A stretch of 64,000 nucleotides of DNA. Source: Candidatus Latescibacterota bacterium. GTDB taxonomy: Bacteria; Latescibacterota; UBA2968; GCA-2709665. The notes beneath the pieces are model-generated. The model saw nothing but the letters and a program-made list of their open reading frames with translations, searched no databases and was not told where the DNA came from. Position 1 is the first letter of the stretch; every line of letters begins with the position of its first letter. Made by a program: the position numbers and the translations under genes. Where the stretch lies: assembly GCA_965237675.1 (NCBI GenBank), contig OZ250150.1, forward strand, positions 3,776,001 through 3,840,000, read 5' to 3'. Below, piece by piece: positions 36,819-39,287 of the stretch.

Positions 36819-37895
36819 TCAGTCGATCCTGATTCGCTGAAGATCGAACGAGTTAACATTGTAGGGTTCGAAGGTGTCTTCGTCGCCGAGCGTAAAGACC
36901 GCGATATACAGGTATTGGTCGTTTTGGTCGATGACGATGCCGCGTTCCCTGAGGTTGCCCGCCGCATGGTAGTAGCGCTTCTCCAGTTTGGTCCGGGTAT
37001 CGAATTCTACGATAAAAACGCCGGCTCTGTCCGCGTCCGTCGGCGCGACGAACAGGCGACTGCCATCGTGGCTCGCGGCAAGCCCTAAAGCCGGAGATTT
37101 GATTTCGTATTTGCCCGTTAGCGTCAGATTGTCGGCGCTGAATGCCCAGAGATCCTTTATGTGGCCTCGGTCCTGAGGATCCGACAGACCCAGGTAGAGC
37201 TGGTCCCTGAGAGGGCTCATAACAAAGTCGTTTATCGTGGCTGAGAAACTGAAACGGGACGAGGTGGTTTCGTTCGTGGGGAAATGACCTGAGGCGTCGT
37301 ATTTCAGGACGTTGTTCCTGGCGGCAACAAAGAGCTTGCGTTCGCCGTGATCCATGAGAAGTGCGCCCGAGCGCACGTTCCCGCCGGTCTCAAGGTTGTC
37401 CACAATGGATACGGCGATCAGCAGGGGTTCGTCGAGGGAGGATACGTAGACAATGGAGTCGGTTCCGCAGGCGACGTGGGATATATTGTTCAGTGAGATG
37501 GGAACTGTTTTCACAATGGCGAACGTACTCAGTTCGATAACTTTCAGGTTCGATTCACCGTTCAACCCCACCACCAGATGGCGCTGATTAGGTGTGATGT
37601 CCAGGTCGACCGGGTGGGAACCCACCTGGAGGTTCCCGTCGATGGCCATCTGCTCGCCAAGGCGGATGCGGAGAATCCGGTTGTTTCCATAGTCGGCCAG
37701 ATAAAGATATGGCTGGTTCGGATCCACGACCATATCCGAGATGTTCACACCGAGTTCCAGGATTTCGAAATCGCTGAATTCATAGAAATGATCCGGCTCG
37801 TCGTCGTCCAGATAAAGCGAGCAGCCCAACACACAAAAGAGCATGCCCACGGCATAGAAAACGAACCGGCCGTGTGTTCTTCCTGTCTGACGCAT
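36819..37895 (-). CDS. YncE/YVTN-like beta-propeller lipoprotein
   Basis: Lipobox VLG-C after a hydrophobic stretch; blade-like repeats (YLYLADYGNNRI, VGSHPVDLDITP, GLAASHDGSRLFVA). Confidence 0.75.
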   Translation of the reverse strand: MRQTGRTHGRFVFYAVGMLFCVLGCSLYLDDDEPDHFYEFSDFEILELGVNISDMVVDPNQPYLYLADYGNNRILRIRLGEQMAIDGNLQVGSHPVDLDITPNQRHLVVGLNGESNLKVIELSTFAIVKTVPISLNNISHVACGTDSIVYVSSLDEPLLIAVSIVDNLETGGNVRSGALLMDHGERKLFVAARNNVLKYDASGHFPTNETTSSRFSFSATINDFVMSPLRDQLYLGLSDPQDRGHIKDLWAFSADNLTLTGKYEIKSPALGLAASHDGSRLFVAPTDADRAGVFIVEFDTRTKLEKRYYHAAGNLRERGIVIDQNDQYLYIAVFTLGDEDTFEPYNVNSFDLQRIRID

Positions 37896-37905
37896 GCCGG
37901 ATCGC

Positions 37906-38877
37906 CTAAAGCGAGATGATGTAAGACGTGCTCAGCTCAATCAGATAATCTGACGTCAGCTGACTCTCGTTCACGTCTTGAAACAGGACGATGGGCATAC
38001 GGAATTCTACGCTTAGGTTATCCAGGATGCTGACCCCCAATTCAGGCGAAAGATACAACCACTTCCCTCCCCGTTCTCTTGTAATCTGACCGAACTGGTA
38101 GCGGTCCCGTGAGGTGATCAGATTTTTCAGACTCAGCCCGCCGTAGAACCGTCCTTCGCCAGTGTACTCTGTGGAGAGGGTGGCGTGCAGTTCGTTTCCA
38201 TATTTGTAGCCGTAAATGTTCTGTCTGGTGGTAATGCGCGTGAAGACGCCGCCCGAAACCGTCAGGTTCTCTAGACGATGGAATACGTTGAAAGCGAGGA
38301 TCGGGTCAACGCTGCCCGAACCGATCTGCAGATTGTCCGAGAAACGCTCCCCGTACAGGTCTTTCGCATTTGCCGATCCGTTTGCAAGCTTCAATCCGAT
38401 GCCGAGATTCAGGCCCGGGAAGCCCGCTGAGAGCGGTGCCGCGTAATTCAACATAACGACAATATCGCCCAGCCCGGACGCGTGTCGAATATATTTCCCG
38501 CCCGCATACTGGTTGTGGTTCTGGCCGCGCAACAACACCTTCTCGTTGGCTACTGAACGAAAGGGTAGGGCAAGCGTCAGTCCGATGCGTTCGGTAACGC
38601 CGTGCGAGGCAAATACGGTGGTGGTGGCGTTATCCGTTCGCTCACGATTCACGTTCGGTATAGCCCGGGTACCGTAATGAGGATCGGATAGGAATTCGTA
38701 ATCGTAGTGTACGCTCAGGGTCAGTTGATCCTTTTCGGCCGGATCATTCCTCATCAAGCTCCCGCCCGGGAGCACTGGACGCCGTCAGCTGACGCCGCCC
38801 TGGGCATGGGCGGCGGGCACCATGAATGTTGGCACGACAAGAAACAGGCACATAAAAAAAACTGAAAACGGCCGCAT
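37906..38877 (-). CDS. Outer-membrane beta-barrel 'transporter' (MetA-pathway-of-phenol-degradation-like) with in-frame TGA; probable selenoprotein
   Basis: ATG 38877 after a GAGGAA RBS encodes signal peptide MRPF...PAAHA, then QGGVS-TGA(38785-38787)-RRPVLPGG, continuing in frame into ORF 37906..38775. Family-like motifs: SGLGDI, GLKL..G, QIGSGSVD, GYKYGNE, alternating C-terminal strand. Confidence 0.8.
38758..38773 (-). promoter_or_regulatory. Candidate bacterial SECIS hairpin
   Basis: GCUCCC-GGGC-GGGAGC (6-bp stem, G-led tetraloop) starting exactly 11 nt 3' of the in-frame UGA. Confidence 0.65.
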
Positions 38878-38940
38878 GCAGGGGTTCCTCGATCAGTTAA
38901 GGTGTGAATGTGAGGCTTCAGCCTTTATTTCTTGCGTTGA

Positions 38941-38969
38941 AATATACCTCACGCGCGTCTGGATAGCAA
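38941..38969 (-). promoter_or_regulatory. Putative promoter of the barrel/beta-propeller operon
   Basis: Minus strand TTGCTA-17 nt-TATATT, about 65 nt upstream of ATG 38877. Confidence 0.5.
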
Positions 38970-39120: not shown

Positions 39121-39194
<74 letters not shown>

Positions 39195-39209: not shown

Positions 39210-39287
39210 GGTGGGTGTAGCTCAGATGGTTAGAGCGCCTGGTTGTGGCCCAGGAGGTCGGGGGTTCAAGTCCCCTCACTCACCCCA
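39210..39287 (+). tRNA. tRNA-His(GTG)
   Basis: G-1, acceptor GTGGGTG/CACTCAC, C73, CCA; anticodon arm CCTGG-TTGTGGC-CCAGG. Confidence 0.96.

Follow-up and report, generated by a model that had tools for sequence, protein, structure and literature searches.

A probable selenocysteine-containing outer-membrane beta-barrel encoded beside a beta-propeller lipoprotein in a Latescibacterota genome

The subject of this report is a two-gene locus in a 64,000-nucleotide stretch of DNA from a Candidatus Latescibacterota bacterium (NCBI GenBank assembly GCA_965237675.1, contig OZ250150.1, positions 3,776,001 to 3,840,000 of the forward strand), hereafter the window, to which all coordinates without a contig prefix refer. 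On the reverse strand of the window a gene for a predicted outer-membrane beta-barrel is followed directly by one for a beta-propeller lipoprotein, and the barrel gene carries, shortly after its signal peptide, an in-frame TGA codon that is probably translated as selenocysteine (Sec, U) with the help of a hairpin located just downstream in the coding region. The features of the locus, with the basis of each assignment in brackets where it is not plain from the letters, are as follows.

37906..38877, (-): full barrel gene, 323 codons including one putative Sec codon (translation with TGA as U, Pfam, AlphaFold2, Foldseek)
38877, (-): ATG start codon of the barrel gene
38885..38890, (-): Shine-Dalgarno-like GAGGAA, 7 nucleotides (nt) 5' of ATG 38877 (direct reading)
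38803..38877, (-): signal peptide, codons 1-25, ending in A-H-A before Q26 (translation, equivalents in homologues)
38785..38787, (-): in-frame TGA, codon 31 and residue 6 of the mature protein after AHA-Q cleavage, read here as Sec
38758..38773, (-): hairpin resembling a Sec insertion sequence (SECIS), GCUCCC-GGGC-GGGAGC, loop NGGN (covariation, Sec sites of the same genome)
37906..38775, (-): truncated open reading frame without a signal peptide, 289 amino acids, start GTG 38775 (translation table 11)
37908-37906, (-): TAG stop codon of the barrel gene
36819..37895, (-): beta-propeller lipoprotein gene, 358 amino acids, lipobox VLGC, start ATG 37895 (PF10282)
38941..38969, (-): weak sigma-70-like promoter candidate, TTGCTA-17 nt-TATATT (consensus match)
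39121-39194, (+): tRNA-Arg(TCT), 5' of the barrel promoter region on the opposite strand
39211-39287, (+): tRNA-His(GTG), 5' of the barrel promoter region on the opposite strand

An earlier sequence-only reading of the window had remarked that the open reading frame 37906..38775 has no signal peptide and that one ending in AHA lies upstream in the same frame, behind a GAGGAA ribosome-binding site and ATG 38877 and ahead of QGGVS-TGA-RRPV. Our translation bears this out in every element: the frame extends 5' through a single TGA to ATG 38877, the TGA is codon 31 and the sixth mature residue, and with TGA read as U the mature protein begins Q-G-G-V-S-U-R-R-P-V-L-P-G-G. The hairpin that had been described 11 nt past the TGA is found at 38773-38758, and the lipoprotein gene, said to follow the barrel stop after 10 nt, does so with ATG 37895 and the lipobox VLGC. 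As the propeller gene itself ends in TGA, this codon is an ordinary stop in this organism. Only the upstream promoter fares less well: the TTGCTA-17-TATATT site exists and matches the consensus at 9 of 12 positions, but it is weak evidence because the region holds five such sites against 2.0 expected from shuffles.

The gene is routinely truncated in databases. A protein search with the read-through product recovered 60 relatives, and because most of them, at 282-289 amino acids, cover only 87-89% of the query, most are cut at the same place; the entry of the window's own barrel (P0002) is the 282-amino-acid product of an ATG lying 21 nt past GTG 38775. The expectation that standard gene callers would shorten this gene was thus correct. 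At the level of DNA, a six-frame search of 168 genomes of the same phylum located the barrel gene in 19. Of the 36 match rows 34 show exactly one TGA, and the other two are a fragment of the C-terminus and a partial match at 28% identity. All genomes of the same genus (15/15) harbor two barrel paralogues, ~52% identical, with a single TGA in each. When one genome per species was scanned, 58 barrel loci were obtained, distributed over five phylum-level groups, namely Latescibacterota, KSB1, Calditrichaceae, Fidelibacterota and Marinimicrobia/Neomarinimicrobiota, and the TGA is found in 56 of them. The exceptions are L111, whose N-terminus falls outside the match, and L113, an Oligoflexia relative with 36% identity over 84 residues and without the motif that follows the TGA; both were set aside, as was L044, a 28%-identical partial match.

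Among the homologous loci that include the N-terminus, the TGA occupies the same codon in 85 of 85, always after a signal peptide equivalent to that of the window and before R-R-P-x-L-P-G-G. These 85 loci represent 57 distinct 63-nt DNA stretches and 60 distinct proteins, so that, on the question raised by the sequence-only reading of whether Cys or another TGA aligns at this position, it is TGA that aligns in all homologous DNA. The codon also stands unchanged in independent sequence, being identical in the assembled contigs of two public runs (X1 and X3) from two studies, one of which is possibly the source of the window itself; the contigs of two further runs, X5 and X8, fall short of the site. 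Both CGN and AGR codons are used for the two Arg residues after the UGA in the 57-sequence alignment, and URRP is therefore conserved as protein.

These data bear directly on the possibility that the locus is a pseudogene, a sequencing error or a pair of separate open reading frames, in which a 30-codon leader would precede a barrel translated from an internal GTG or ATG. The last of these would explain why gene callers give exactly a signal-less frame of 282-289 amino acids, but a barrel needs a signal peptide to reach the outer membrane, no start codon is conserved past the TGA (the first one lies 57-90 codons downstream in five Fidelibacterota/Marinimicrobia loci), and reading frame and URRPxLPGG peptide alike stay conserved through the TGA. 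The identity of the TGA at 85 of 85 loci in five phyla, together with its confirmation in the run contigs, leads us to treat sequencing error and pseudogene as excluded on comparative grounds, and we consider this whole group of explanations extremely improbable.

The genome is equipped for Sec insertion. The sequence-only reading had suggested looking for selA, selB, selC and selD, and selA, selB, selD and tRNA-Sec (73 bits) are all present with scores over their cut-offs, selB, selA and tRNA-Sec being clustered at C1:4984023-4987542. selA and selB also exceed their cut-offs in all five carriers sampled outside the phylum, of which three are from Marinimicrobia, one is from Fidelibacterota and one from KSB1, and selA is found in 18 of the 19 carriers of the same phylum, the exception being an 80%-complete assembly in 820 contigs.

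In a genome scan for in-frame TGA codons followed by a hairpin, three recognisable selenoprotein genes, confirmed by family searches, served as controls. A selD-like gene (TIGR00476, 363 bits, one TGA) has the arrangement TGA-N12-AGTCC-GGTC-GGACT, a FdhA-like molybdopterin oxidoreductase with U in S-R-A-U-H has TGA-N13-TTGCC-GGTCT-GGCAG, and an AhpC/Redoxin-like gene with U-P-T-C has TGA-N11-GGCGG-CGGGT-CCGTC. The barrel gene, with TGA-N12-CTCCC-GGGC-GGGAG, matches these three Sec sites of the same genome in spacing, stem length and the GG of the loop. A genome-wide list of selenoproteins, attempted by combining TGA, hairpin and a codon-usage score, was abandoned, as the score could not separate genes from antisense frames.

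The barrel hairpin has a stem of 5-6 base pairs that starts 11-12 nt past the UGA, with the 5-base-pair core CUCCC/GGGAG starting at 12 nt, and a loop of NGGN or GGUC. Across the 57 distinct aligned sequences, Leu-Pro ... Gly-Ser codons spell out the stem C-U-N-C-C / G-G-N-A-G. Its middle pair (27-36) is formed by the third bases of two codons, that of Leu and that of the second Gly, and both positions are synonymous. This pair is C-G in 33 sequences, U-A in 19, U-G in 3, A-U in 1 and G-C in 1, and is unpaired in none (0/57). The covariation score of the whole structure is 0.259, compared with 0.154 +/- 0.014 in shuffles, of which 0 of 500 reach 0.259, and with 0.010-0.158 when the 3' partners are slid along the alignment; likewise, 90.5% of cells are paired as opposed to 33-63% with slid partners. 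On a tree built from the barrel proteins minus their N-terminal residues, the two covarying columns change 15 and 12 times. There are nine independent sister pairs with a difference in the first column: the second column changes to match in about seven of them, stays unchanged in about two (U-G intermediates) and moves the opposite way in 0, for a sign test of about 0.016. These compensatory synonymous changes argue that the hairpin is evidently maintained, and under selection, as RNA. A scan of 38650-38900 against Rfam at E up to 10 gave four chance-level matches and no SECIS family. With all four Watson-Crick pairs sampled at one protein-neutral stem position, the family offers a clean natural data set for the rules of bacterial SECIS elements.

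Selection for a hairpin would in principle also be compatible with translation of the UGA independently of Sec, a near-cognate tRNA inserting Trp, Cys or Arg under stimulation by the hairpin and leaving an ordinary residue at position 6. Hairpins past stop codons do promote read-through in some systems, and seven database proteins (P0027, P0029-P0031, P0033, P0068 and P0169) carry Trp at the site, the type of homologue that the sequence-only reading had named as speaking against Sec. Those of the seven that belong to the 60 relatives come from ENA contigs of 1.3-2.8 kb; genome loci whose N-termini are near-identical to the W proteins (for example L091-L093) carry TGA. Trp homologues thus exist as database entries, but we judge them to be gene-caller artefacts, the homologous DNA having TGA; the likely mechanism is that a code with TGA as Trp was chosen for short A+T-rich contigs. 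Such public entries could mislead homology tests that compare Sec with Cys.

If Trp were the residue wanted, TGG would furthermore be expected somewhere, and it occurs in 0 of the 85 loci. A metagenome scan for TGG or TGY at the site, which called for G-[VI]-x before it and RRPxLPGG after it and would miss divergent forms, returned 16 stretches, all of them G+C-rich chance matches and 0 of 16 a barrel gene. The failure to find Cys orthologues among the 60 protein relatives or these 16 stretches would fit read-through. The equality of hairpin spacing and GG loop with the genome's three recognised Sec sites, and the presence of selA and selB in all sampled carriers, count against it, and we regard read-through without Sec as an improbable account of the codon.

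An exhaustive profile-free search found six relatives at E up to 1e-30 and 440 distant full-length ones at E up to 0.001. From these, 17 distant relatives were picked for matches that reach the N-terminus, and 15 of the 17 have at least two Cys within ~10 residues of the end of the signal peptide, typically as A-Q-x-C-C or A-Q-x-C-x-C. Profile alignment of the Sec family with 13 Cys-rich relatives by hhalign gives a probability of 100%, E 6e-42 and 27% identity over 283 columns, and sets U6 against an invariant Cys of this distant sister family, U having been entered as C, which favours the match. The two families share the barrel. In the sister family a thiol-bearing motif lies a few residues past the signal peptide, with at least two Cys in place of one Sec, and the RRPxLPGG motif is lacking. 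Judging from these alignments, a thiol or selenol at the tip of the mature chain seems to be a recurring feature in this superfamily branch. A word-based search with residues 20-62, again with U as C, produced nine candidates of which only the window's own truncated entry is listed, and provides little evidence.

As for the body of the protein, its sole Pfam match is PF13557 (Phenol_MetA_deg), which covers residues 66-260 with 25.6 bits (cut-off 22) and E 1.6e-5. NCBIfam yields no match at E up to 0.01, not even to NF041027, and a PDB sequence search with the family profile gave 0 matches at E up to 1, so that a fold search was required. AlphaFold2, supplied with 59 family sequences, models the mature barrel with a mean predicted local distance difference test score (pLDDT) of 85.3 and a predicted template-modelling score (pTM) of 0.83, as twelve to thirteen strands of which the first starts at residue 26. 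Foldseek relates this model to the FapF transporter 5o65 (E 9e-14, template-modelling (TM) score 0.68) and to the COG4313 channel Pput2725 (4rl8; E 8e-13, TM score 0.69/0.76), with an identity to the solved barrels of 11-14%. The mature protein is predicted with high confidence to be a 12-stranded outer-membrane barrel of the COG4313/FapF type.

About 25 residues precede strand 1, and residues 1-19 are modelled at pLDDT 47-52; the placement of Sec in the barrel is therefore by analogy. In PMC4493636, the N-terminal ~14 residues of Pput2725 are described as blocking the 12-stranded barrel on its periplasmic side. The mature barrel is free of any Cys, and the propeller has no conserved Cys besides the lipid-bearing one.

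The propeller gene is a stable companion of the barrel. Its product matches the seven-bladed Lactonase propeller PF10282 (25.8 bits, cut-off 21.7) and has the mature N-terminus CSLYLDDDEP, within a strongly conserved family pattern C-S-L-Y-x-D-[DE]-E-x-P. The gene lies directly 3' of the barrel in 44 of the 58 one-per-species loci, in all five groups and at 29-83% identity, and this linkage together with the 10-nt gap supports the operon with a propeller lipoprotein that had been put forward from the window. A lipoprotein export signal of the Bacteroidetes type was considered for the propeller and rejected, the acidic run at +6 to +9 bearing only weak resemblance to it; that signal is, according to PMC5080379, located at ~+3 to +6 after the lipid-bearing Cys and sensitive to position.

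A second recurrent neighbour is a gene for an exported thioredoxin-fold protein with a WCxxC motif, matching AhpC-TSA/Redoxin/Thioredoxin_8, which stands directly 5' of the barrel in 23 of the 58 loci and in at least three phyla: in Calditrichaceae, KSB1, Fidelibacterota and their relatives, and at all Latescibacterota loci of paralogue 2. In the genome studied here, the paralogue-2 locus (L132, C1:3231000-3236500) has its TGA at C1:3233277, within AQPGVS-U-RRPVLPGGRM and followed by the hairpin CTCCC-GGGC-GGGAG, with the WCxxC thioredoxin gene directly 5' at C1:3232309-3232992; the copy in this genome is located at C1:3232309-3234143. The gene order at the orthologous paralogue-2 locus L071 is NHL propeller, thioredoxin, barrel with U, methyltransferase, and the paralogue-2 loci of Latescibacterota generally have this NHL propeller upstream and not the propeller lipoprotein downstream. 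The window's own locus consists of barrel and propeller, with the tRNA-Arg and tRNA-His genes upstream on the other strand.

Two further types of gene recur around the module. A large FG-GAP/UnbV_ASPIC repeat protein is encoded near it in eight of 10 neighbourhoods belonging to several phyla (L069, L084, L088, L090, L093, L101, L105 and L108), with a C-terminal sorting domain of type-IX secretion in six of these eight; it is not found beside either barrel locus of this genome. A CBM20 (starch-binding) esterase or a cyclomaltodextrinase flanks the module after the propeller in L084, L088 and L101 and before the barrel in L093 and L100; these loci are from Fidelibacterota and Marinimicrobia, and the arrangement may be lineage synteny only.

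On the comparative evidence given above, SelB and tRNA-Sec would read UGA codon 31 as Sec, directed by the coding-region hairpin 11-12 nt downstream. That Sec is inserted at this codon, in an exported barrel of 12 strands, has by our estimate a probability of about 0.85-0.9, which makes the core of the explanation highly probable; the function outlined in what follows is a proposal. Sec residue 6 would lie on the ~25-residue segment before strand 1, placed as a plug by analogy with the COG4313 channel. As the chain contains no Cys, the selenol would act alone, as a thiophilic or redox-active plug tip that may either capture and hand over a soft-metal or chalcogen substrate or gate the channel according to its redox state. 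The exported TlpA-like thioredoxin would keep the Sec reduced, and the presumably co-transcribed propeller lipoprotein is, by gene linkage, a conserved partner that might also interact physically. We infer from the linkage to both genes that a redox-active or thiophilic role of the Sec residue is supported.

More specific, and in our view possible though doubtful, is the proposal that the selenol forms a selenium-based capture or gating site by which a thiophilic substrate, either a soft metal or a species of sulfur or selenium, crosses the outer membrane, with the thioredoxin recycling the site, the propeller capping it, and Sec not replaceable by Cys. Were the last point true, it would account for the lack of a Cys orthologue in five phyla, abundant marine Marinimicrobia among them.

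Sec might also be inserted for a reason unrelated to its chemistry, the codon serving to tie production of the channel to the supply of selenium. The location of the residue in a flexible N-terminal tail without a redox motif of the CxxU type would suit such a switch, as would the tolerance of Ser and Glu in relatives (see below). Conservation of S-U-R-R-P as amino acids over five phyla, the invariant Cys at the aligned position of the distant sister family, and the linked exported thioredoxin are at odds with it; taken together, they point to selection acting on the residue's chemistry, and we consider a selenium-availability switch improbable.

Several observations nevertheless weigh against the explanation given above. 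The evidence for Sec decoding is entirely comparative, and the runs listed as containing the stretch include none of RNA. With 131 of the 168 genomes in the phylum encoding selA, the gene is too common there for its association with carriers to discriminate more than a little. No close Cys orthologue was found among the 60 protein relatives or the 16 metagenome stretches, and such an absence is unusual for selenoprotein families. The closest full-length relatives without TGA have Ser (P0015 and P0020) before the RRP/RHP motif, and the more distant P0091 has Glu, all three being protein entries only; the residue is therefore not indispensable in every member. The alignment to the Cys-rich family is method-dependent in detail, as MAFFT sets U one position after the second Cys in the CxC form (P0079, P0098 and P0096) and two after it in the CC form. 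The position of Sec on the plug is taken from the likeness to 4rl8, and model confidence at the N-terminus is low. Finally, no thioredoxin gene is found beside the window's locus or any type-1 locus of the same genus, nor any gene for handling copper, mercury or another metal in the 10 neighbourhoods inspected.

The decoding apparatus resembles the Escherichia coli fdhF paradigm: an in-frame UGA followed, 11-13 nt on, by the stem of a short G+C-rich hairpin in the coding region with GG in its apical loop, in a genome with the SelA, SelB, SelD and tRNA-Sec machinery. The fdhF element has a conserved loop G at a comparable distance past its UGA. In contrast to that paradigm, the host protein here would be an outer-membrane barrel of the channel type and not an oxidoreductase, and its Sec stands alone in a chain without Cys, with no CxxU or UxxC motif and with no close Cys orthologue found. 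Most of the bacterial selenoproteins known so far are redox enzymes that are soluble or reside in the inner membrane.

With the COG4313/PF13557 barrels (Pput2725, 4rl8) and FapF (5o65) the protein shares the predicted 12-stranded barrel and the N-terminal segment before strand 1; it differs from them in that described members have no Sec, and propeller and TlpA-like thioredoxin partners have not been described for them. The main text of the Pput2725 paper (PMC4493636) contains no instance of the word cysteine.

In the accessible parts of two reviews from 2022 and 2026 (PMC13188914, PMC9312934), the outer-membrane barrel selenoprotein listed is that of the GSU2204 family/MtrB-PioB (NF041027), and their catalogue tables contain no other outer-membrane barrel; neither PF13557 nor 'phenol' appears in those texts. 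The GSU2204/MtrB-PioB selenoprotein is likewise an outer-membrane beta-barrel, but, as there described, it belongs to Pfam MtrB_PioB and has a CXXCH motif, and NF041027 does not match the barrel reported here. The papers found to join COG4313 with selenium terms are on crystallography, and those found to join selenoproteins with Marinimicrobia or Latescibacter looked unrelated from their titles and abstract openings. The family was thus not found in selenoprotein catalogues, a comparison that covers main texts and tables; supplementary lists of large surveys may include it.

Decoding is canonical and the barrel fold known; what appears new is the combination of the two, with a lone Sec, at an unusual cellular place and with no close Cys form. 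If this holds true, Latescibacterota, KSB1, Calditrichota, Fidelibacterota and Marinimicrobia have in common a conserved envelope protein that public databases throughout mis-annotate as a signal-less 'transporter' or hypothetical protein, and the selenium demand of widespread marine and sediment bacteria has an outer-membrane component. A lone Sec on a flexible plug, apparently without a Cys alternative, would moreover make the question of why Sec is used rather than Cys testable outside the classical active site.

Two other TGA-containing stretches of this genome are recorded here as observations in their own right. The AhpC/Redoxin-like control gene with U-P-T-C (L131, C1:3456019-3457173, reverse strand) has 385 codons, and its AhpC/TSA-Redoxin product is exported and has Ig-like (DUF1573/HYDIN-type) and EF-hand-like C-terminal domains. 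In addition, a stretch present in seven identical copies (C1: 981554, 1944502, 2706888, 3715967, 3865541 and 4564277 on the reverse strand, and 4936179 on the forward strand) contains frames of 177 or 102 and then 239 codons, joined by one in-frame TGA, which the hairpin CTCCA-GGATC-TGGAG follows, and looks like a multicopy mobile element with recoding or a two-ORF (open reading frame) junction.

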